Positions 43,731 to 54,230 of a stretch of DNA of 64,000 nucleotides are shown here, piece by piece. Under the pieces are notes generated by a model. That model searched no databases, was not told the DNA's origin, and saw only the letters and a program-made list of their open reading frames with translations. The stretch spans positions 11,980-75,979 of the forward strand of contig JASEIG010000002.1 of the NCBI GenBank assembly GCA_030017615.1, read 5' to 3'. The DNA comes from Patescibacteria group bacterium. Its GTDB lineage: Bacteria; Patescibacteriota; Minisyncoccia; UBA6257; UBA9933. A program made the position numbers and the translations under genes. The first letter of the stretch is position 1. Every line of letters begins with the position of its first letter.

Positions 43731-43754
43731 GGGACCTTAGATGGTCCCCTTTTA
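43731..43754 (+). terminator. GGGGACC-TTAGAT-GGTCCCC-TTTT hairpin
   Basis: Read directly. Confidence 0.8.
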
Positions 43755-44914
43755 TATTTTTCCTCTTTTAATATCTCTCCGAATTTTTTCAACATAAGAA
43801 TTAAAAAAATAAAGATTGTGTTCGGTCAACAACCTAAGCGCGGTAATTTCCTGCGATTTATATAAATGAGAAATATAACTGCGAGTGTAATTTTGGCAAA
43901 CTTGGCAAGAACATTTTTTATCCAAAGAATTATTGTCTTTTAAAAACCTTCCGCGAAAAACATCAATTTTCCCTTTTGAAGTAAACGCAATCCCGCGCCT
44001 GGCATAATTAGTGGGAACAGTGCAATCAAAAGTGTCCACTCCTTGGGCGATAATTTTAGGGATATCTTCAAGAAATCCGATGCCAAGCAAATGTCTCGGC
44101 TTGTTTTCGGGAAGTTCGTTAAAAATCCATTTCAATATTTTCAACATCATTTTTTTATCGCCGCCAAATTCGCCGCCCACGGCAAAACCGTCAAACGGCA
44201 ACGACCCGATAAACTTCGCGCTTTTTACTCTCAAATCTTTAAACTTCCCCCCCTGAACAATCCCGAACAAAGCTTGTTTTGATTTTTTAACATCCAAACA
44301 AATTTGAGCCCATCTATGAGTTCTTTCCATTGATTGTTTATTATAATCATAATTCGCATTGGGTGGCGGACATTCATCAAACGCCAAAATAATATCGGCT
44401 CCGATTTTTTCCTGAATTTGAAGGATTCCTTCGGCCCAAGAAAAACCCTGCTGTTATCCACATACGACCGAAACCAAACGCCCTTTTTGGTTATTTTAAT
44501 ATCCTCCGGTTGGCTCCCGGGCAAAACTATATTGTTTGTTTGCAATTTATTATTTTGTTTTTGCCGTTTATCGTCGGATAAAATTTTCCCCACTCCAAAA
44601 TCTTTTCCAAATCCCAAACTAAACACCTGAAAACCGCCGGAATCCGTCATAAGCGGATGCTTCCAATTCATAAATTCATGAAGACCTTTGTGCGATTTCA
44701 GCACATCTCCTCCCGGCCTTAAATGAAGATGATAAGTGTTGGCGATAAGAATTTGGCTCTTTGTTCTTTCCACTTCCTCGCTAGTCAAAGTTTTAATAGT
44801 TCCCCTTGTGGCAACCGGCACAAAACACGGAGTCTCAACGACTCCGTGTTTTGTTTTCAACAATCCGAGACGCGCCCGGCTCTTTTTTGATTTTTTCAAA
44901 ATTTCAAATCCCAT
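43752..44914 (-). pseudogene. tgt: queuine tRNA-ribosyltransferase split by a 1-nt frameshift (N-part 44231..44914, C-part 43752..44387)
   Basis: N-part ...LTDSGGFQVFSL...FLGPKES; C-part in the next frame LQIQEKIGADIILAFDECPPP ... zinc site CSCQVCQNY..H. Frames join within ...gaatccttcaa... (consistent with a missing C). Confidence 0.8.
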
Positions 44915-44940: not shown

Positions 44941-45858
44941 TTATTGTTCTGACGCAACCGGCTTATAATCTCCGGGGTTTACAGACCGTTCAAAACAAAC
45001 TATTCCTTGTTCGTGATTCCAATTATATGTTTCGTAATAAAACGCGGGCGCAACTCTTTTTTGTATTTTATTGTCCTTGTTTGAAGTTTGAAAGTTGGCG
45101 CAGATTTCATATTTCAAATTTGATAATTTTTTATATCCGTATGGCGCGCCTGTTTGAGGGTCTGCGGGAATATTCAAACCCCCGTCTTTTAAGTCGTCAA
45201 AAACATCGGGAAGTTTTTCATTTTTTCTCCAATATTCACTCAGCTGGCTTTGAATAAAAGAAAGGTCGCTGATTCTCTTTTCATCAAACCGAATTAACCG
45301 CTGGCTTTTAGGCAAACCCGCGACAAACAATCCGGCGACTACCCCGATAAAAATAATCACAGCAGTAATTTTAGGCAAAACAGAAGTTGTAAAATTTTTA
45401 ATTTCAGGGCTTCTTAAAATTTTCAGATAATAAATAAAAATAACGATTGCGATTATAAATATAACGATAACTTTCATAAAAAAGTTTAAAATCAGCTCTC
45501 CGCGAAGAAAATTGTAAATCAACCCAATGACATCGCCGACAATAACAATCGCGGAAATAAACAAAGTAAAATTAAGAAGCCATCTTCTTATTTTGAGATT
45601 TTTTTTCTCCGGAATTATTTCTGTGTCTTTTCGCAAAAAATTCATTATCCAGATATAAACCGGGAAAACAATCAATAATACGGCAATTGACCAGCGAATT
45701 GCGTCATAAGAAGCCGAAACCGGCGCATAACTTAAAACATCCGGCAAATAAATATTGATTATTTGGAATATCAAACTGCCGAAAGAAACCGCAATAAACG
45801 CTAATGCTATAACTGAAAGCAGGTATAAAAAAACGTCCCGAGATAAATTGTTTTCCAT
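44941..45858 (-). CDS. hypothetical polytopic membrane protein with C-terminal extracytoplasmic domain
   Basis: ORF with six or more TM helices. Confidence 0.45.
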   Translation of the reverse strand: MENNLSRDVFLYLLSVIALAFIAVSFGSLIFQIINIYLPDVLSYAPVSASYDAIRWSIAVLLIVFPVYIWIMNFLRKDTEIIPEKKNLKIRRWLLNFTLFISAIVIVGDVIGLIYNFLRGELILNFFMKVIVIFIIAIVIFIYYLKILRSPEIKNFTTSVLPKITAVIIFIGVVAGLFVAGLPKSQRLIRFDEKRISDLSFIQSQLSEYWRKNEKLPDVFDDLKDGGLNIPADPQTGAPYGYKKLSNLKYEICANFQTSNKDNKIQKRVAPAFYYETYNWNHEQGIVCFERSVNPGDYKPVASEQ

Positions 45859-45895
45859 ATATTTATTATAAACCCGAATTATAAATACGCAAACT

Positions 45896-45919
45896 AAAAA
45901 CTCCTATATAGGAGTTTTT
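45896..45919. terminator. perfect palindrome AAAAACTCCTATATAGGAGTTTTT (bidirectional terminator)
   Basis: Read directly; lies between convergent or tandem minus-strand genes. Confidence 0.75.
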
Positions 45920-45934
45920 AGTTTTTAGTTTTAT

Positions 45935-48103
45935 TTAAACCAAGTCCGTTTCTTTGCTTTTAATAAAAAAATGATAAATCCCATAGCCAATTATTAATCC
46001 GAGCAATAAGTCAAAAGCCCAATTGCTAAAAAGCGATTTTAAAATATTCTCCAGCGAAGCGGTAAGAGAATTTCCGCTGATTATCGCTGTTATAAAAGCG
46101 CTGATTGACTGGAATGTTCCTTTATAATTATTGTATTCAAGCAAAGCGTTAAATATAAGAACGTTATTTTTTTCAGCCGCGTCTTTTATTTTTATCTTAA
46201 TATTTATAGCCGCCTGACTTTCAGTGTCTATGGTTCCCAAGTTGAAAACCAAATTATTATCCGCAGTTATTAAAGCGGGTTGAATAGTAGAGCCTAAATA
46301 TTGAGTTTCTGAGGGTAAGGCAATTTTCAACACCACATTGGAAATAGAATGAGACGATTTATTCTTGTAAATAATTGAATAATTGACTCCTTCGCCCGGA
46401 TCCGGATTATCATCGCTGATAGACGGTTCAAGAATAATGTTTTTGTCGGCGGAGATTTCGGATTTTTTTATGAATGTGATTTGGGTTTCTTTTGAAACGG
46501 GAACATAAGAGTTTGCGCGCGTTGTAAAGTTCAAAATATTTCCGTAATTGGTTCCGAGAGAATTACGCGCAACCGCCCTATAATGATAAATAGTGTCGGC
46601 TTGCAATCCTGAAGCCGCGAAAGAAAATTCATGCGAAACAGCGTCCTGCCCCATCGGCTGTTCAGCGGTTTTATTTCCTAAAGAATTTGTCGTTCCCCAT
46701 TCAAACCAAGCTGTAGTCAAAGAATTATTCGGGTTGACTGATCCGCTAAACAAAGCCGAGTTCTGATACACATAAGAAACATTGTTAGTGGTAACATACG
46801 GATAATTTCCGCTCGCGCCGTAATAATTATATCCGGAACCGTATCCGGGAGTCGTAAAACTTACTATATTGCCATAACTGGTGCCGGTATAATTTTGCGT
46901 CGCCGCGCGGTAATAATAAGTGGTATTGGATTGAAGATTGGACAAACTGGCGGTTAAATTAACTCCGGTCCCCGTTCCTATGTTTTGATAACCGGTTGTA
47001 TACCCAAGCGAAGTGTTTGTCCCATATTCAAACCAAACTGTTGTGCCGGAATAATTGGAGCTAACCGACGCGTTGAGAGTCGCAAAATTAGAGCCGATTG
47101 AAGTCGCGTTATAAGTTGTAACCGTCGCGCCGCCTCCATAACCGGAACTGTAATAATTATAATTATACCCCGTTCCCGTCATAAAATTCATAATTGAACC
47201 GTAGGAAGTTCCATAACTGTTTTGAGCCGCAATTCTGTAATAAAAATTCAGATTCGGCTGAATATTTGAAAGATAAGCTGAAATGTTTGTGGTAAAGTTT
47301 GAAATACCGATATTTTGATAACCTGCGGTGCTTCCAAGCGAAGTTGTCGGACCATATTCAAACCAAACTGTGGTATTTGAGTTGTTTGAATTAACCGTGC
47401 CGTTTAATGTCGCGTAATTCTGGCCGATGGAAGTCGCGGGGTTAGTGGCAACAATCGGAGCGTTGGCGGAACTCCCGCTTCCTCCCGCTCCCACCAAAAC
47501 GCTAAAAATCACATATCCTTGAGAACTCCAGCCTGAAACGATGTCTCCGATATTTAATCCTTCGGAAACTATTTCATTCCCGCTTTGTCCGTATAAAAGA
47601 GGTTGAGCGGCTGAATTTCTGCTCGGGAACCACTTAACCGAATTGGAAACAAAAGTAAGCGATTGATTGGAAGGCGCCGAAATGCCGACGCTTCCATTTA
47701 TAGTCCCCGAATTTTGAGAAACTATGGAAACCGAAACCGTCTGAGATGAATAACTCCCCGACGGAACATTGGCAATAATTTTTGTCTGATTAGCCGTTTC
47801 GTTTGAAGTGTTATGATAATAAACCAAAAAGCTTAGATACTCGCCGCCATTCGCGGAGCCGGAAGTTTTCCAACAGCTGGCGCAACCGGGACTGGTGGTT
47901 AAGTTCCCGACTTGAAGCGTCGGATAATCCAACGGGTCGGTGTTAAAAGACGCCGCGGCAAACGAAAAAGACGGCGCTACAAAAACTCCTATTAAAATGA
48001 TTAAAGAAAAAACGAAAATCGCCTTATAATTTGTGATGTTTTTCATATTTTCAGCTTTATCTTTTATTTTAGCAATCATATACCTTTTTATTATTTCTGT
48101 CAA
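45935..48103 (-). CDS. large cell-surface protein: signal anchor, about four tandem ~95-aa beta-rich repeats with the (T/A)WFEYG...YYR..A.N..GTSYG signature, DUF11-like region, C-terminal TM anchor
   Basis: Repeats ATNPATSIGQNYATLNGTVNSNNSNTTVWFEYGPTTSLG... read directly. Confidence 0.6.
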   Translation of the reverse strand: MTEIIKRYMIAKIKDKAENMKNITNYKAIFVFSLIILIGVFVAPSFSFAAASFNTDPLDYPTLQVGNLTTSPGCASCWKTSGSANGGEYLSFLVYYHNTSNETANQTKIIANVPSGSYSSQTVSVSIVSQNSGTINGSVGISAPSNQSLTFVSNSVKWFPSRNSAAQPLLYGQSGNEIVSEGLNIGDIVSGWSSQGYVIFSVLVGAGGSGSSANAPIVATNPATSIGQNYATLNGTVNSNNSNTTVWFEYGPTTSLGSTAGYQNIGISNFTTNISAYLSNIQPNLNFYYRIAAQNSYGTSYGSIMNFMTGTGYNYNYYSSGYGGGATVTTYNATSIGSNFATLNASVSSNYSGTTVWFEYGTNTSLGYTTGYQNIGTGTGVNLTASLSNLQSNTTYYYRAATQNYTGTSYGNIVSFTTPGYGSGYNYYGASGNYPYVTTNNVSYVYQNSALFSGSVNPNNSLTTAWFEWGTTNSLGNKTAEQPMGQDAVSHEFSFAASGLQADTIYHYRAVARNSLGTNYGNILNFTTRANSYVPVSKETQITFIKKSEISADKNIILEPSISDDNPDPGEGVNYSIIYKNKSSHSISNVVLKIALPSETQYLGSTIQPALITADNNLVFNLGTIDTESQAAINIKIKIKDAAEKNNVLIFNALLEYNNYKGTFQSISAFITAIISGNSLTASLENILKSLFSNWAFDLLLGLIIGYGIYHFFIKSKETDLV

Positions 48104-48189
48104 GTAAAACAGTTTAGTTATATTTTATGATTTTAAATCAGTCTAAAATAAAAAATTTAAATTTTTAAAAAAATAAAAAACGGGCAATC

Positions 48190-48381
48190 TTATATCGCCC
48201 GCTTGTAAAGCCATGCTAAAAGTCCGACGAGAACCGAAAACCAAATTCCCACTATAATTTTCCCCGCGATTATACTATTAAATTTGATAGTCATATTATC
48301 AATCATTTGCGGTAAAAAATAAAAAACGGCAACGGCGATAATATAATACAATATCGCAAAATACTTCCCCTTTGTTTTCAA
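48190..48381 (-). CDS. small two-TM membrane protein
   Basis: ORF only; sits within the surface-protein cluster. Confidence 0.3.
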   Translation of the reverse strand: MKTKGKYFAILYYIIAVAVFYFLPQMIDNMTIKFNSIIAGKIIVGIWFSVLVGLLAWLYKRAI

Positions 48382-48461
48382 TACTCTATCCTCCTTTAAA
48401 ATTTGCTGATACCTAAAATAAAAATTTAGGGAGCGGTTTTCACAAAACCGCTCCCGCTTTT

Positions 48462-49568
48462 TTATTGTATTCCCGGCATTGGCGCGGGTCCCACCGGTAT
48501 AGGCGGCGGCACAGCGCTCGTTCCGCCTGTGACAGTTGCGGTTGTTGTCGTCGCATTAGTAACAACGCCTGAAGTTGAGGGTGAAGATGAAATTTCTCCT
48601 CCAGAAGGTTGTGGTTGAGCTGGTTGAGAAGATGAGATTCTCGGTTTTGGTTTTGCGACCATGTATGAAATAATTCCAAATCCAATAGCTTCAGCAACTC
48701 CTTTTGCCGTTATACAACCCCCATCGATATAATCTCCGGTTAATGTTGTGCCGGCTGTGATTGCTCCGGCTAACAACTTGGGTTGTTTTAAAACAATAGC
48801 CGAAACTATTCCAACGGCTCCCCCAATCACAGCTCCCCAACCCGTCTTTTTCTGTTCGCAGGTGAGTTTAGGTTCTTGAGACATTTGTTGTTTTTGCAAC
48901 ATCACTGTTCCCGCCATAGGATATTCCAAAATCTTACCATAAGCCGTTCCGGCGCTGTTTTTTCCAACTAATCTATACCAGATTTTGCCGGAAATTTTTA
49001 TTGCCGCTTCCATTTCCATCGGATTTGTCCCGATATTAACAGAGGCGCTTGAGAATTCCATTTTATCAGGTTCGGAGAAACTCCACTCAAACCACGCCTT
49101 AGTTTCAGACCCCTGAGGGTCCACATCCCCGGATAACACTATTGTATCCGCAGAAGCAGAACGTATCGCCTGTAATGTTTTTACAATCGGAGTTTTTATT
49201 TCCTGAGCTACGGGTAAAGAAATTTTTGTCTGTTCAGATTCGTTAATAATCAAATCGCTCACGATGGGGTTCCCGCATAAATAAATTCTTTTTCCTTTTT
49301 TCTTTCCGCTGATTAAATCCTTCGCTACCACCACGTCAGTATTCTCCGGAAGAACACAGGTGTATTGTTTCCCCGATCTTCCTTCCATAGTGATAAGCGC
49401 CGGACTTTTTATTTTTACAAGTTCTTCGCTCAATGCAAGCGGCTTATAAGGATCCGCGGGATCTCTGTTTAATCGGCACATCTGTTTTTTATTTACAGAT
49501 GTTTCTCCAAAACTATCCGTCGCAAAAAACAAAAAAATCAATCCTAAAATAATATATGTCTTTTTCAC
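48462..49568 (-). CDS. secreted/membrane protein with one WFEW-type repeat related to those in the 45935..48103 protein, a glycine-zipper TM segment and a Pro/Thr-rich tail
   Basis: Signal peptide MKKTYIILGLIFLFFA; LSGDVDPQGSETKAWFEWS...GTAYGKILEY. Confidence 0.55.
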   Translation of the reverse strand: MKKTYIILGLIFLFFATDSFGETSVNKKQMCRLNRDPADPYKPLALSEELVKIKSPALITMEGRSGKQYTCVLPENTDVVVAKDLISGKKKGKRIYLCGNPIVSDLIINESEQTKISLPVAQEIKTPIVKTLQAIRSASADTIVLSGDVDPQGSETKAWFEWSFSEPDKMEFSSASVNIGTNPMEMEAAIKISGKIWYRLVGKNSAGTAYGKILEYPMAGTVMLQKQQMSQEPKLTCEQKKTGWGAVIGGAVGIVSAIVLKQPKLLAGAITAGTTLTGDYIDGGCITAKGVAEAIGFGIISYMVAKPKPRISSSQPAQPQPSGGEISSSPSTSGVVTNATTTTATVTGGTSAVPPPIPVGPAPMPGIQ

Positions 49569-49719
49569 GACAATCTCCCTCCTGTTATTTATTTTTCTTT
49601 TATTTAAATGTTAAAAATTCTTTGCTCAAAATACCATTTTTAAATAAAAAAGCAAGTCTTTAAAAAAAACCTGCTTTCCACGCTTTTTTGCAATAATTTA
49701 AAATAATTTAAACTGTATT

Positions 49720-50028
49720 TTACGATGAGATGTTTTTCATTAAATTAATGCTTTCTTCTTTGAATTTGCTGATTTCTTCGTTTGTGATTTCGTCTAAATT
49801 CGGAATTTTTGATTTTAAAAATTTAAAAATGGCTTCTTGGTCGTCCGGTTTTTCACCCAATAATTTATCAAATTCGTTTTTATCTGCTTCGCTTAATTCC
49901 TGTAAAATTTGCAATATGATATTTTGTCGGATTATATTTCCGATGCTTAAAATAAGTTCTTCCTGTTCTTTTTCAGAAAGCGTATCCATTCCCAGTTCTT
50001 TTATAATATTTTTTCCTAAATTATCCAT
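49720..50028 (-). CDS. small acidic hypothetical protein
   Basis: ORF only. Confidence 0.35.
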   Translation of the reverse strand: MDNLGKNIIKELGMDTLSEKEQEELILSIGNIIRQNIILQILQELSEADKNEFDKLLGEKPDDQEAIFKFLKSKIPNLDEITNEEISKFKEESINLMKNISS

Positions 50029-50063
50029 TGTTTTAAACGTTTTACAATCGTTACCGACCTTTT

Positions 50064-53000
50064 CTATACAGTCTTCAATCTTTGAAAAACTGTTTTTATA
50101 TTCGCAATCGCTTCCGCTTTTTTTATGGCATCGCTTCCGTTTATGTCTTTAAAATTTGTGTTAAAATTTTTTATCAGTTCAGTGTCAACTTTATTATTCC
50201 AATGACTGGCATAATAATCCGCGAATTCTTCCGTTCTTATTTTCCCGCCGTTAATTTGACTTGCCAATTCAATTATCTTGCCGTCAATATTTTTATCGTA
50301 AACAAAAGAATCAAACATCTGCTTTTTGAGAAAATCGCCGATGGGCATATTTTTAAATTTAATTCTATCGGCATCCGGATATTTTTTTAACATCTTTTCA
50401 ATCTCACTTTGGAATTTTTCTTTTTCATTTATTTCCCACCACTGCGGACTTCCATGTTCGGGTTTAACAACATAACCGACGACAGAATCTTCGTGGCCAA
50501 TAAAATCGCGAGACATTACTTTATCAACAGTGTTCTCTTTATTATTGATAAAAAAATCAATCCACGAAGATTTTTTAATATCTATTCCGGTTGAATTTTC
50601 CGCCCAATTTTTAATTCCTTCGGAAATCGACGCGGATTGATAAACGGATATATTTTGGTTTTCAACATCTTGCGGAATTATCGCGGGATTAATTTCAGCA
50701 GGTTCTTTTGTTATAACGAGTTTCGCTTCAACTTCCACAGAAGGAGCAATTTGGGGAGCAACTTTATTCGCGCCATCTCCGTCATTATCTTCGGGCAACC
50801 ACGAATATATTTTTGACTTGTCAAATTTAATTTCATCGCCGTCCAAAATAACCCGCGCGCCCGGTTCTGAAATTCTCAACTCGGTTCCCGCGTCTTGGTC
50901 TATTATTCCGTTTTTCACAAGCAGTTTGAGAGTTTCTTTGTTTAAAATCATCTTAATTTTATCCTGGTTAGCCAAATCTTCGGGCTTTATCCCTAAATTT
51001 GAAGCAAACTCGAAATTATGATGAATTTTATAATCCAGCTGACCGTAAACAGCTCGCCAAAAGCTGTTATTTTTCTCCGTTATTAACATTGCTTTCTCAA
51101 GTTCGGCGGGGATTCCAAAAGATTTTTGAAAAATAATTTCATCGGTTTTCTCAATAATTCCGGCTTTTCCAAATTGCTTCATCTGCTCTTCGGTAATGCC
51201 CATATATTTGGCAACCGGAATATACTTATCAGCGCTCATTCCCATCCCGCCGGCAATTTGACCGGATAACAGCCCAGACCCCACGCCTCCGACAGCCGCA
51301 GACACTGCCCACTTGGCTAAATTAATTTTTCTTTGACGTTTTAAATCATCTTCGTATATCCTTAAATATTCGCGGTTTAATTCTTCCAAATTTGACAGCG
51401 CGTCAAACCGCTCGCTCAATTTCCCCATTCTATAACCAAACGTTTTTTCTTTCCAAAGAGTTTTTTCCAATCCTTTTATCCCAAGAGCGGATAATCTTTC
51501 CGCGCCTAAAGTTAAAACAGTTGACAGCGCGGCGCGGCCAAAACGATATCCGCCAAACAACAAAGCGGCGGTTCCTCCCGCAACATATCCCCCGCCGACA
51601 GCCACTCCCGTCGCTATGGAAGCGGAAACAGCCCATCTCGCCGCTTTGGGCAAGCGAGCCCATCCGGATAAAAATTTCTGAAAAATATTTTTTTCTTTCG
51701 GAGGAAATTCCTCAATTTTTGCCTTGTTTAATATTTCGTTCTCTTCTATAACAAGTTTTTTAAAAATCTCGGAAGCGGAATATTTTTTCAGTTCGCTTTC
51801 CAATTCATTTCCGTTTTTGCCCTGAGATTGGAATTCCGACTTCTTGTTTCCATAAAGACTTTTCCCGTATTCCTTTTTTGATTTTTCATACGCGAATTTG
51901 GCAAATTCAGTTTCAAAAATTTTATCCGCCCTTATAATATCTTCACTTGTGAAAAATATGCCCCTTTCCGTTATATTTTTTATAAATTGTTCCTTTAGCC
52001 GTTTTTTATTGTCTTCGGATCCAAACCCGGCTTCAAATCCATTGCTTTCTTTTACAAAAAATTCTTTTAAGTTTTTTACGGCTGTTTTATGAGTTAAATT
52101 TTTTTCCTTTTTTGTTCCGCCAAAAGCTTTTAAATAATCTTTATAGGCGCCGGCATAAGCGGTTCGCGAAGCTTCAAGATTTTTTACGGATTCTTCAATG
52201 GAAATAAAGGCGTTTTTTTCGGTTTCTCCGGTTTTCGCCCGCATTTTTTCCAATTCCGATTTTACTTCTTTTCTTTCTTCATCGGAAAATATTTTTTCCG
52301 CTCCGCCAACCGGTGAAAGAATAATTTCAATTTTAACTTCTTTTTCCGGAACAGCCGAAATAATATGTTCTGTTACGGCATCTTTTCCCGTTTTCACGGG
52401 TTCTCCTTTAAGGGTTCTTCGTTCCTCATCGGTAAAAACCGCGCCCTTTAACCCTACGGGAGAAACTACTTCAATCAGCGGTTTTTCTTCGATTTGCGTT
52501 TCTTTTTTAATAATTTCTTTTTCAACTCGCGCATTATTAATACTTTTATATTCTTTAATGGTCTCTGTTTCTTCTATCGGTTTTGCCTCTTCAAATTTTT
52601 GAACTTTTTTTGTTTTCATTCTGTCGCGCGCCGATTTCGCTTTTTCCAATTCTTCCCTGAAAAAATTTTCCTTTTTTTGAAGTTCCAGTTTTTCAGTTTC
52701 AGTTTTCGCCGCTCTTAACACTTTTTTCGCGGCTATCAATTCTTTTCCTAAACGGTCTATTTCTTTTGAAATAAAAGAATGTCCACGTTCCTTGCTGTGT
52801 TTTTTATGAAACGGTTTTTCTAAATTTTGCGTTTGTTCTTTATTTTTTCCCGCCCCTGAAATATCTTGCGGTTTTTCCGCAAATGCGCCTTCTTTTTCAA
52901 CATTTTTTAAAACTTCTCCGATATGCGCAAACTTATCTTTTTTAGATTCTGTTTTTTTGGTCTTTTTAGGTTCTGTTTTTTCGCTTTTTTCAGATTTTGT

Positions 53001-53231
53001 TTTTTTATCTTTTTTAGATTTTTCTTTTTTTATTGTTTTAAAATCTTCGGGAGCGGCGGCGCCCAGACTTTTTGGTTTTGTATCTTTTTTTTCTCCCAGT
53101 TCCTTTGAAAATTCCTCTTCTGTTTTCTTCTTCTCATCAAGCGCTTTTTTCAACGCCTCAAACATAATACCCCCGGCGCGCGGTTCTTTTTTTTCTTCCT
53201 CTCCGGATTGATGAGGTGTTAATTTTTCCAT
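50064..53231 (-). CDS. giant (1055 aa) protein: K/E-rich low-complexity N-terminal half, two Gly-zipper TM segments, globular C-terminal domain
   Basis: Single long ORF; internal repeats SPVG..F(T/S)DEER; TM segments ARWAVSASIATGVAVGGGYVAGG and KWAVSAAVGGVGSGLLSGQIAGG. Confidence 0.55.
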   Translation of the reverse strand: MEKLTPHQSGEEEKKEPRAGGIMFEALKKALDEKKKTEEEFSKELGEKKDTKPKSLGAAAPEDFKTIKKEKSKKDKKTKSEKSEKTEPKKTKKTESKKDKFAHIGEVLKNVEKEGAFAEKPQDISGAGKNKEQTQNLEKPFHKKHSKERGHSFISKEIDRLGKELIAAKKVLRAAKTETEKLELQKKENFFREELEKAKSARDRMKTKKVQKFEEAKPIEETETIKEYKSINNARVEKEIIKKETQIEEKPLIEVVSPVGLKGAVFTDEERRTLKGEPVKTGKDAVTEHIISAVPEKEVKIEIILSPVGGAEKIFSDEERKEVKSELEKMRAKTGETEKNAFISIEESVKNLEASRTAYAGAYKDYLKAFGGTKKEKNLTHKTAVKNLKEFFVKESNGFEAGFGSEDNKKRLKEQFIKNITERGIFFTSEDIIRADKIFETEFAKFAYEKSKKEYGKSLYGNKKSEFQSQGKNGNELESELKKYSASEIFKKLVIEENEILNKAKIEEFPPKEKNIFQKFLSGWARLPKAARWAVSASIATGVAVGGGYVAGGTAALLFGGYRFGRAALSTVLTLGAERLSALGIKGLEKTLWKEKTFGYRMGKLSERFDALSNLEELNREYLRIYEDDLKRQRKINLAKWAVSAAVGGVGSGLLSGQIAGGMGMSADKYIPVAKYMGITEEQMKQFGKAGIIEKTDEIIFQKSFGIPAELEKAMLITEKNNSFWRAVYGQLDYKIHHNFEFASNLGIKPEDLANQDKIKMILNKETLKLLVKNGIIDQDAGTELRISEPGARVILDGDEIKFDKSKIYSWLPEDNDGDGANKVAPQIAPSVEVEAKLVITKEPAEINPAIIPQDVENQNISVYQSASISEGIKNWAENSTGIDIKKSSWIDFFINNKENTVDKVMSRDFIGHEDSVVGYVVKPEHGSPQWWEINEKEKFQSEIEKMLKKYPDADRIKFKNMPIGDFLKKQMFDSFVYDKNIDGKIIELASQINGGKIRTEEFADYYASHWNNKVDTELIKNFNTNFKDINGSDAIKKAEAIANIKTVFQRLKTV

Positions 53232-53241
53232 AATTTATAAT

Positions 53242-53916
53242 TTATTGAACTACCAGCGGCACAAAATTAAAGCCGAAATATTCTTTTTTATTATACTTAT
53301 TTTTTGATATTTTATCAATAACAACAATATTATTGCCCACCGGCGCCACAATACGCCCGCCGATTTTCAGCTGGCTTTTCCAAGTCTTGGGAATTTCGTT
53401 TTCCGCCGCGGCTCCCGCCAGAATTTTGTCAAACGGAGCTCCTTTTTTATATCCTTTTGCTCCGTCTCCTAAAATACTTTGAGCAACCCCGCTTTCAATA
53501 AACCCGTATTTGGAAATATTTTTTTCTCCCGTTTCCTTAAGTTCGGGAAGTCGTTCCATTCCTATTACTTTGGTATTTTGCGCAATCAAATCATTTTTTA
53601 AAATTTCTTGGGAATTATTGCGGCTGATTACGTGCGACAACAAAGCGGTGGTCCAACCGGAACCGGAACCGACATCTAAAATTTTTTCTCCCGCCTTCGG
53701 CTGAAGCAATTCCAGCATAAATGCTACCGTCAGCGGCTGTGAAATAGTCTGCCCCGAATCAATCGGCAAAGGCGCGTTAATATAAGCGTTTGCTTTAAAT
53801 TTTTCGGGGACAAAATCAGCCCTGTCTATATTTTTAAAAGCTTCTATTATTTCAGGCGTTTTAAGATACCCGTCGTTTACCAAAGAATCTGTCAAAATAT
53901 CATTTTGTGGGTTCAT
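53242..53916 (-). CDS. pcm: protein-L-isoaspartate O-methyltransferase
   Basis: TISQP pre-motif, SAM motif I ILDVGSGSGW, motifs II/III. Confidence 0.85.
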   Translation of the reverse strand: MNPQNDILTDSLVNDGYLKTPEIIEAFKNIDRADFVPEKFKANAYINAPLPIDSGQTISQPLTVAFMLELLQPKAGEKILDVGSGSGWTTALLSHVISRNNSQEILKNDLIAQNTKVIGMERLPELKETGEKNISKYGFIESGVAQSILGDGAKGYKKGAPFDKILAGAAAENEIPKTWKSQLKIGGRIVAPVGNNIVVIDKISKNKYNKKEYFGFNFVPLVVQ

Positions 53917-54156: not shown

Positions 54157-54230
54157 CCCCGCAGTAAATTTCGGCATTTCGCAAAGCGAATAAAATTTTG
54201 CCGAAATCTACTGCGGGGTTATTTTTTTTT
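54157..54230 (+). terminator. long imperfect hairpin (about 19-bp stem CCCCGCAGTAAATTTCGGCA / TGCCGAAATCTACTGCGGGG) followed by T9
   Basis: Read directly. Confidence 0.7.

Follow-up and report, generated by a model that had tools for sequence, protein, structure and literature searches.

Five adjacent minus-strand genes, here called g1055, g102, g368, g63 and g722, occupy positions 45935-53231 of a 64,000-nucleotide stretch of Patescibacteria DNA (the window, whose coordinates are used throughout unless a related locus is named). A preliminary description, made from the sequence of the window, had presented them as a candidate envelope module for attachment. We examined the genes, the domains they encode and their counterparts in related genomes, and conclude with fair confidence that the interval joins two unrelated kinds of gene: an old, conserved unit made of the upstream gene pcm together with g1055 and g102, and a variable slot that holds g368, g63 and g722.

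Gene content and predicted transcription units

All five open reading frames (ORFs) that had been reported are present at positions 45935-53231, and their products match NCBI proteins of "Patescibacteria group bacterium", the block spanning locus tags QMD86_00750 to QMD86_00770 (those returned for g1055, g368 and g63 are given in Table 1). The gaps between them measure 35 (g1055/g102), 151 (g102/g368), 80 (g368/g63) and 86 nt (g63/g722). Their shared direction, to which the preliminary description had pointed, is real but carries little weight, because every ORF of at least 150 aa between 24.6 and 59.4 kb lies on the minus strand, with only a few shorter plus-strand ORFs inside or beside those.

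Hairpins were identified by RNA folding against 200 shuffled sequences and promoters by consensus scans, and the transcription units given here are predictions. Five hairpins, one at 54160-54221 and one after each of g102, g368, g63 and g722, outfolded 200 of 200 shuffles. The first of these, which sits after the gene of a 148-aa membrane protein (g148) and upstream of pcm, is far stronger than the other terminators of the region and is probably where the upstream limit of the transcription unit containing g1055 really lies. The stop codon of pcm lies 10 nt before the ATG of g1055 with no hairpin between them, and so the block, which had been described as bounded by terminators, has none at its upstream edge. 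The hairpin after g102 is a probable intrinsic terminator closing the pcm-g1055-g102 unit, and the terminator-like hairpins inside the block, after g102, g368 and g63, argue against a single operon, as does a promoter-like site before g722. The TTG at 48103, from which a mechanical ORF call had started g722, is the -35 box of this site; NCBI starts the protein at M9, and the methionine of its signal peptide, M20, lies at 48046. The likely units are thus four, namely pcm-g1055-g102, g368, g63 and g722.

Table 1. Features of the block and its flanks, listed in the direction of transcription.
Feature	Position	Strand	Details and basis
Long hairpin upstream of pcm	54160..54221	-	21-bp stem with small internal hairpin; -41 kcal/mol, z = -8.6
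Promoter-like site upstream of pcm	53979-53952	-	TTTAAA-16-TATAAT; promoter scan
pcm	53242..53916	-	protein-L-isoaspartate O-methyltransferase; Pfam PCMT, E=1.2e-53
g1055 (QMD86_00770)	50064..53231	-	unnamed Patescibacteria membrane-protein family; ORF call, homology
g1055 residues 1-340	52212..53231	-	K/E-rich, basic, non-conserved N-terminal region; composition, alignment
g1055 residues 480-690	51162..51794	-	family-defining core (~190 aa); phmmer, alignment A2
g1055 residues 700-1055	50067..51134	-	three C-terminal modules (700-850, 850-975, 975-1055), acidic, pI 5.3; module dissection
g102 (MDI6717572.1)	49720..50028	-	DUF5663 protein, small, acidic, helical, no signal peptide; Pfam PF18908, NCBI name
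Hairpin and U-run after g102	49647..49679	-	z = -3.2; 0/200 shuffles fold as well
g368 (QMD86_00760)	48462..49568	-	ORF call
g368 FN3 domain (residues 127-220)	48909-49190	-	HMM
Predicted terminator after g368	48429..48455	-	perfect 12-bp GC-rich hairpin and U-run; -20.6 kcal/mol
g63 (QMD86_00755)	48190..48381	-	63 aa, two hydrophobic segments; ORF call; good ribosome-binding site (AGGAGG)
Predicted terminator of g63	48178-48204	-	hairpin and U-run; folding
Sigma-70-like site upstream of the real g722 start	48075..48103	-	TTGACA-17-TATGAT, 11/12 matches; consensus scan
g722 (MDI6717569.1)	45935..48079	-	714 aa from M9; ORF call, NCBI start
g722 FN3 domains	47171-47458, 46844-47128, 46514-46801	-	HMM
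g722 DUF11 (residues 560-648)	46160-46426	-	Pfam PF01345
g722 C-terminal transmembrane anchor	45962-46018	-	sequence
Predicted terminator after g722	45891..45924	-	34-nt perfect palindrome, 15-bp stem; -18.4 kcal/mol, z = -7.1

Fibronectin type III repeats in g722 and g368

The products of g722 and g368 had been said to share a repeat, and they do so far beyond chance, with domain E-values of about 1e-39 to 1e-46 (1e-40 to 3e-46 in g722, 2e-39 in g368). We delimited the copies by BLASTP and by a hidden Markov model (HMM) built from them, which placed three in g722 (residues 216-311, 326-420 and 435-530) and one in g368 (residues 127-220); the "about four" copies first counted in g722 come down to three, a fourth being found by neither method. 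The repeat occurs in no other ORF of the window.

A profile of the four copies matched fibronectin type III (FN3) domains in the PDB, namely those of titin (E=1.9e-5), MuSK, DCC, contactin and FNDC3A, and the sequence profile of the repeat is that of FN3, including the motif L-x-P/x-T-x-Y-x-[FY]-R-[VL]-x-A-x-N-x-x-G. The AlphaFold2 (AF2) model of the third g722 repeat is all-beta, with a mean predicted local distance difference test score (pLDDT) of 97.6, and its Foldseek search against the PDB returned 19 matches at E<=1e-3, with the RsgI4 sensor domain at the top and FN3 (FNIII) or FN3-scaffold (Centyrin) domains making up the remainder. The Foldseek probability was 1.00 to the FN3-like domain of RsgI4 and to the FNIII domains of Ihog, BOC, fibronectin, titin and integrin beta4, with TM-scores up to 0.76. 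In Pfam, the repeat did not reach the gathering score of fn3 (PF00041), and it gave sub-threshold matches to the FN3-like families Pur_ac_phosph_N (25.9 bits vs 30) and PhoD_N (23.7 vs 30). Judging from its sequence, the repeat is a divergent subfamily of FN3, and it is a plain FN3 domain, common and well characterised. The preliminary description was to give up its attachment module should structure searches assign the repeat to a well-known domain with a mundane function and the block show no conserved synteny; the AF2, Foldseek and PDB profile searches make that assignment, and most of the outcome named is what we observed.

The g722 protein consists of a signal peptide, a ~165-aa beta-rich N-terminal domain, the three FN3 domains, a DUF11 domain and a C-terminal transmembrane (TM) anchor, and NCBI's own name for it is that of an FN3-domain protein. 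The DUF11-like module and the C-terminal TM segment of the preliminary description are both there, DUF11 scoring above its gathering threshold (28.2 bits for the whole protein and 32.0 for the fragment, vs a cutoff of 24.6). The statement that none of the five products belongs to a family that can be named is therefore wrong for g722 (FN3, DUF11), and also for g102 (DUF5663, see below). The N-terminal domain had no significant match in Pfam and none in the PDB, and resembles DUF11 by eye only, with no score behind the likeness. No motif of the LPXTG, PEP-CTERM or GlyGly-CTERM type precedes the C-terminal TM segment (the protein ends in ...SLFSNWAFDLLLGLIIGYGIYHFFIKSKETDLV), and an NCBIfam search for a sorting signal gave nothing at E<=1. 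The TM segment and tail (45935-46060; SLFSNWxFDLLLGLIxGxGIYHFFIxSKETDL) are nearly identical in the orthologue at L023, one of the related loci introduced below, the two proteins being ~50% identical overall; this conserved helix and tail might serve as a sorting or interaction signal of a kind not yet recognised. Locally higher GC and a flat GC skew prompted us to consider horizontal acquisition of g722, and we found no evidence for it, since GC at third codon positions falls inside the span seen in neighbouring genes and it is codon position 2 that carries the excess (the protein is Ser/Thr/Gly-rich).

The literature already treats FN3-bearing surface proteins of Patescibacteria as candidates for host adhesion (PMC13059738; PMC11809585), and g722 resembles them in having a signal peptide, tandem FN3 domains, an Ig-like DUF11 and a membrane anchor. 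Its FN3 number varies between orthologues (3 vs 5), which is usual in domains that serve as stalks or spacers. Unlike the FN3 giants of more than 1,500 aa in those papers, it is ~700 aa long and has no recognised ligand-binding head, and its anchor is a plain C-terminal TM helix without LPXTG or another known sorting signal. As in DUF11 ("conserved repeat domain", PF01345) proteins, its DUF11 stands just before the membrane anchor, though in one recognised copy rather than a tandem array. We regard g722 as an ordinary type-I surface protein with an FN3 stalk and a plausible adhesive role.

The g368 protein was described as secreted and carrying one repeat copy, and both an N-terminal signal-like segment and the single copy are seen. 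Its layout is a signal peptide, a Cys-containing N-domain of ~85 aa, one FN3 domain, Gly-rich membrane segments (~242-305) and a P/S/T-rich tail; neither the N-domain nor the membrane and tail region has a significant Pfam match, and its only non-self relatives bear PF00041, PF16655 or PF16656. Its FN3 domain is closest to the last, membrane-proximal copy of g722 (33% identity), with which it shares an AWFEW signature. We propose that g368 is a small secreted, membrane-anchored protein that gained one FN3 copy. Signal peptides, FN3 and/or DUF11 beta-sandwich domains and membrane anchors bear out the placing of both g722 and g368 in the envelope. The two-TM character given to g63 agrees with its two hydrophobic segments, and we regard it as a putative orphan mini membrane protein, with no counterpart in any related locus.

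The g1055 family and its DUF5663 neighbor

The g1055 protein was described as a giant lysine/glutamate-rich membrane protein with internal repeats, Gly-rich membrane segments and a globular C-terminal part, a portrait that our analysis largely upholds. Lysine makes up 15% and glutamate 12% of it, the SPVG..F(T/S)DEER repeat is present in two copies (residues 257-271 and 306-320; 52419-52463 and 52272-52316), and residues 1-480 have an isoelectric point (pI) of 9.3. The family-defining core consists, in order, of an amphipathic helix, a (W/F)PPKEK motif (FPPKEK in g1055), a Gly/Ala-rich helical hairpin (533-567), a basic charged loop between the membrane segments (pI 9.6) and a Gly/Ala-rich TM helix (647-670); AF2 gave helices H50-66 and H74-92 here. 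The glycine-zipper families Gly-zipper_Omp, YMGG and Rick_17kDa_Anti gave no Pfam match at E<=1 for g368, g1055 or 30 family cores. AF2 was confident of the C-terminal part at residues 714-814, 869-909 and 924-1054 (module pLDDT 83-95), and a fold search found no relatives of these modules.

We searched 1.84e9 cluster representatives (50% identity clusters) with g1055 residues 500-1055 using phmmer/HMMER, and found at least 159 family representatives at E<=1e-3 and 54 at E<=1e-10, the best non-self match being at 6.6e-58. The core was found by phmmer in 126 of 153 family proteins, the K/E-rich N-terminus aligned with only two, and the three C-terminal modules recurred in varied combinations (700-850 in 43, 850-975 in 14 and 975-1055 in 12), while a further 277-aa C-terminal module, absent from g1055, occurs in more than 40 members. 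The members with a named source belong to metagenome-assembled genomes (MAGs) of Jorgensenbacteria, Portnoybacteria and unclassified Patescibacteria and are all annotated "hypothetical", and so far the family has been seen only in Patescibacteria. It has no Pfam model: g1055 and nine other full-length members contain no Pfam domain, and profiles of the core (A2) and of the first C-terminal module (A6) found nothing significant in Pfam or the PDB. A word-indexed search with full-length g1055 returned only itself, probably because K/E-rich words swamped the candidates, and one with the core alignment A2 returned no match. A LysM-like reading of the KGEGxWHAVYRQL motif was dropped, as Pfam lent it no support. 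In some relatives the big gene consists of two or three consecutive ORFs (L023 8653-8952, L011 9464-11445 and L004 8015-11224, in the coordinates of those loci), and at L023 a 99-aa ORF of its own encodes the last module (g1055 residues 972-1052); the genes may truly have split, or frameshift errors in the MAGs may be responsible.

Across 120 aligned cores, the mean counts of K+R and D+E were 4.8 and 0.8 before the Gly-rich hairpin, 0 and 0 in its turn, 2.1 and 0 at its end, 4.5 and 0.6 just before the last TM helix, and 1.1 and 1.8 after it. By the positive-inside rule this pattern puts the N-terminus and the loop between the segments inside and the C-terminal modules outside, and the Pro-rich linkers that follow the TM helix in homologues are consistent with an external C-terminus. 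From the charges in the sequence, then, the N-terminus and basic loop of g1055 are probably cytoplasmic and its C-terminal modules extracytoplasmic, in line with its description as a membrane protein.

The neighboring gene, g102, encodes a bona fide member of DUF5663 (PF18908; 25.3 bits vs a cutoff of 23.7, covering profile positions 1-83 of 84), a family without a described function or partner. It is acidic, as had been noted (pI 4.5; 22 D+E vs 13 K+R). A DUF5663 profile (A7) found nothing significant in the PDB or Pfam, and our literature search found no paper that mentions DUF5663 or DUF5671.

To compare gene order we sampled 28 loci (designated L001 to L028), obtained from pattern scans of GTDB genomes and JGI metagenomes (5 and 14 loci, with a narrower alignment, A3) and from exact look-ups of family members. 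In all 16 independent loci with enough flanking sequence (L002-L005, the L008 group, L014/15, L017-L019, L020, L021 with two copies, and L023-L027), the g1055-family gene has a DUF5663 gene as its immediate neighbor, read in the same direction, and homologues in the related loci carry precomputed PF18908 annotation. The two genes come in either order, and in Portnoybacteria DUF5663 stands on both sides, the g1055-family gene being situated between two paralogues (L021/L022 5630-8959). The gene pcm adjoins the pair in about seven lineages (L002, L003, L015, L019, L023/L028 and L027 among them). At L023 and L027 the counterparts of g102 are ~63% identical to it and those of g1055 29-37%. We are thus fairly confident, as part of the conclusion given at the outset, that g1055 and g102 form a unit conserved across Patescibacteria, which pcm joins in part of the tree.

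The other neighbors of the pair are mainly housekeeping genes (rplJ/rplL, uvrB, tRNA synthetases). At L011 (11820-15485) and L025 (7983-11627), the uvrB gene beside the pair contains an intein with LAGLIDADG homing-endonuclease and helix-turn-helix domains.

Conservation of the block and its interpretation

Comparing the five-gene block across related genomes, as the preliminary description had itself advised, showed that only g1055 and g102 are kept throughout (16/16), that g368 and g722 recur in one lineage and that g63 recurs in none. The lineage in question, L023/L028, is a sister of the one studied here (DnaK 82% identical) and is collinear with the window from grpE to the FN3 gene. Its g722 orthologue is 50-52% identical and has five FN3 copies vs three in the window. 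In the g368 orthologue at L023 (9528-10391), 26% identical over 81 aa, the Cys-containing N-domain, Gly-rich membrane segments and P/S tail are all retained, and a P/Q linker stands in place of FN3, which suggests that the FN3 domain of g368 was copied from the neighboring gene or else lost in the sister lineage. This lineage has no g63. L027, which is equally related to the window (pcm 67%, DUF5663 64% and DUF5671 50% identical), reads pcm, big gene, DUF5663, an unrelated 316-aa gene and DUF5671, and lacks g368, g63 and g722; we tested the 316-aa gene as a g368 orthologue and rejected it. Since DUF5671 lies one gene past DUF5663 at L027 and just past g722 in the window, these two genes bracket a variable slot. 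No ORF with the FN3 repeat was found in L001-L019 with the HMM, or in L020-22 and L024-27 by Pfam annotation.

From the observations described above (how the genes are built and which domains they encode, where terminators fall, which neighbors are kept, how large and modular the family is, and how unevenly its charges are distributed) we favor the following explanation, which as a whole we consider probable. The basic, K/E-rich and fast-evolving N-terminus of g1055 and its basic loop would lie in the cytoplasm, and the last TM helix would carry the acidic C-terminus to the outside, where modules swapped among family members would form a variable external head. g102 would be an obligatory cytoplasmic partner, most simply one that binds the basic juxtamembrane loop or the N-terminus. 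On this account g1055 may, as a tentative suggestion, be a membrane-spanning anchor or display protein with interchangeable external modules and an internal acidic DUF5663 adaptor. The slot between the DUF5663 and DUF5671 genes holds, in this lineage, three envelope genes with separate predicted terminators, and for those with FN3 domains adhesin or stalk roles are plausible.

Scaffolds such as TolA, MapZ and RodZ have an extended charged stretch, an anchor in the membrane and, across the membrane, a globular domain. g1055 would share this overall logic, as an analogy, no relationship of sequence or fold having been found; unlike them, it has its charged region at the N-terminus and presumably in the cytoplasm, a Gly-rich hairpin plus one TM helix, and a small acidic partner. 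Compared by description, the g1055 family also fits the 20 Parcubacteria-enriched families of Meheust et al. 2019 (PMC6744442), mostly hypothetical proteins, of which 12 were predicted to be membrane-localised.

Several points weigh against the explanation that we favor. Hydrophobicity in the membrane segments of g1055 is low, with every 19-residue window below a Kyte-Doolittle value of 1.5, and AF2 was unsure of the core (pLDDT 31-69 in 10-residue blocks), which leaves charge bias as the sole basis of the topology. A physical interaction between DUF5663 and g1055 is something we infer, and the synteny comes from pattern-limited scans and a few look-ups, a sample rather than a census. L023/L028 keeps four of the five genes collinear with the window, the terminator-like hairpins are compatible with read-through transcription, and the pair and the FN3 genes may yet be functionally linked in this clade.

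The alternative that survives best, though we would not expect it to hold, is that g368 and g722, perhaps with g63, form a clade-specific surface complex of their own, in which g368 would be the membrane partner or anchor of an FN3 stalk. Both lineages that possess the two genes have them side by side, the likeness of the g368 FN3 domain to the membrane-proximal copy of g722 agrees with such a complex, and the C-terminal TM segment and tail of g722 look much better conserved than the rest when orthologues are read side by side. However, only two lineages were seen and these are collinear anyway, terminators (and g63, in the window) separate the two genes, and g368 evolves very fast, with an FN3 domain that is not conserved.

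The single envelope structure of the preliminary description, whether adhesin, fibril or apparatus for host attachment, would have its membrane base in g1055 and its outer parts in the FN3 proteins. We consider it improbable, even though each of the five products either belongs to the membrane or surface or is encoded next to one that does, and the order pcm, big gene, DUF5663, g368-like, g722-like is kept in L023/L028. That collinearity covers the whole grpE-dnaK-dnaJ region, and so reflects relatedness and not functional linkage, and the equally close L027 has none of the three slot genes. Moreover, 15 other independent loci have the pair with no FN3 gene nearby, a terminator-like hairpin follows each of g102, g368, g63 and g722, and the g368 orthologue is devoid of the shared repeat. 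As a dedicated attachment module the block thus fails on three counts: its repeat is a common domain, its five genes are not conserved together and terminators inside it split it.

An equally improbable reading places the pair in a DNA-transfer or type-IV-secretion-like system, as the membrane component that works alongside a coupling ATPase of the VirD4/TrwB kind. A DUF8128/TrwB_AAD_bind/DUF87 (VirD4-like) ATPase gene does lie within ~5 kb of the pair in five lineages (L001, the L011 group, L017, L021/22 and L025), but phmmer found none among the ORFs of the window, there is none beside the pair in L002, L003, L020, L023, L024, L026 and L027, no other component of a type IV secretion system was seen, and the neighbors are otherwise housekeeping genes. 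Least likely of all is that g1055 is cytoplasmic except for a short loop and tethers DNA or ribosomes to the membrane through nucleic-acid-binding C-terminal modules and its lysine-rich N-terminus: the N-terminus is histone-tail-like in lysine content and rplJ/rplL adjoin the pair in L002, L003 and L026, but the weak winged-helix-like signals of the modules are statistically insignificant, charge bias puts the C-terminus outside, and exposed regions typically show Pro-rich linkers and shuffled modules such as these.

Returning to the two kinds of gene that we favor, the FN3 genes are of a kind already known and annotated, to which this locus adds a further example, together with a clear instance in which the number of FN3 copies has changed and a neighboring gene has apparently gained one. 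The pair is uncharacterised, clade-restricted and moderately interesting. For DUF5663 a first hint from context is that, in all the Patescibacteria loci that we sampled, Jorgensenbacteria and Portnoybacteria MAGs included, it stands next to a member of the g1055 family. The pair also defines a two-gene unit open to tests in the few cultivable Patescibacteria, by co-folding and by proteomics. As a speculation that we rate as rather unlikely, the pair might be a Patescibacteria-wide envelope-spanning system, with a DUF5663 adaptor, interchangeable heads contacting hosts or substrates and a slot that accumulates lineage-specific FN3 adhesins; if true, host recognition in uncultured episymbionts would become accessible to genetics.

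Upstream, the block is preceded by grpE, dnaK, a 335-aa gene, dnaJ, g148 and pcm, and downstream it is followed by the DUF5671 membrane protein gene (44941-45858, directly after g722), a split tgt, a patatin-like gene and LemA. PADLOC models gave no match, and the PHROGs gave one marginal match, on the TM segment of g722 (E=0.0065). The tgt gene (queuine tRNA-ribosyltransferase; 43752-44914, minus strand) is divided into two overlapping ORFs of 227 and 211 aa, which correspond to positions 2-90 and 131-343 of the TGT profile, respectively, indicating a frameshift near 44231-44400 that makes it either a pseudogene or an assembly error.

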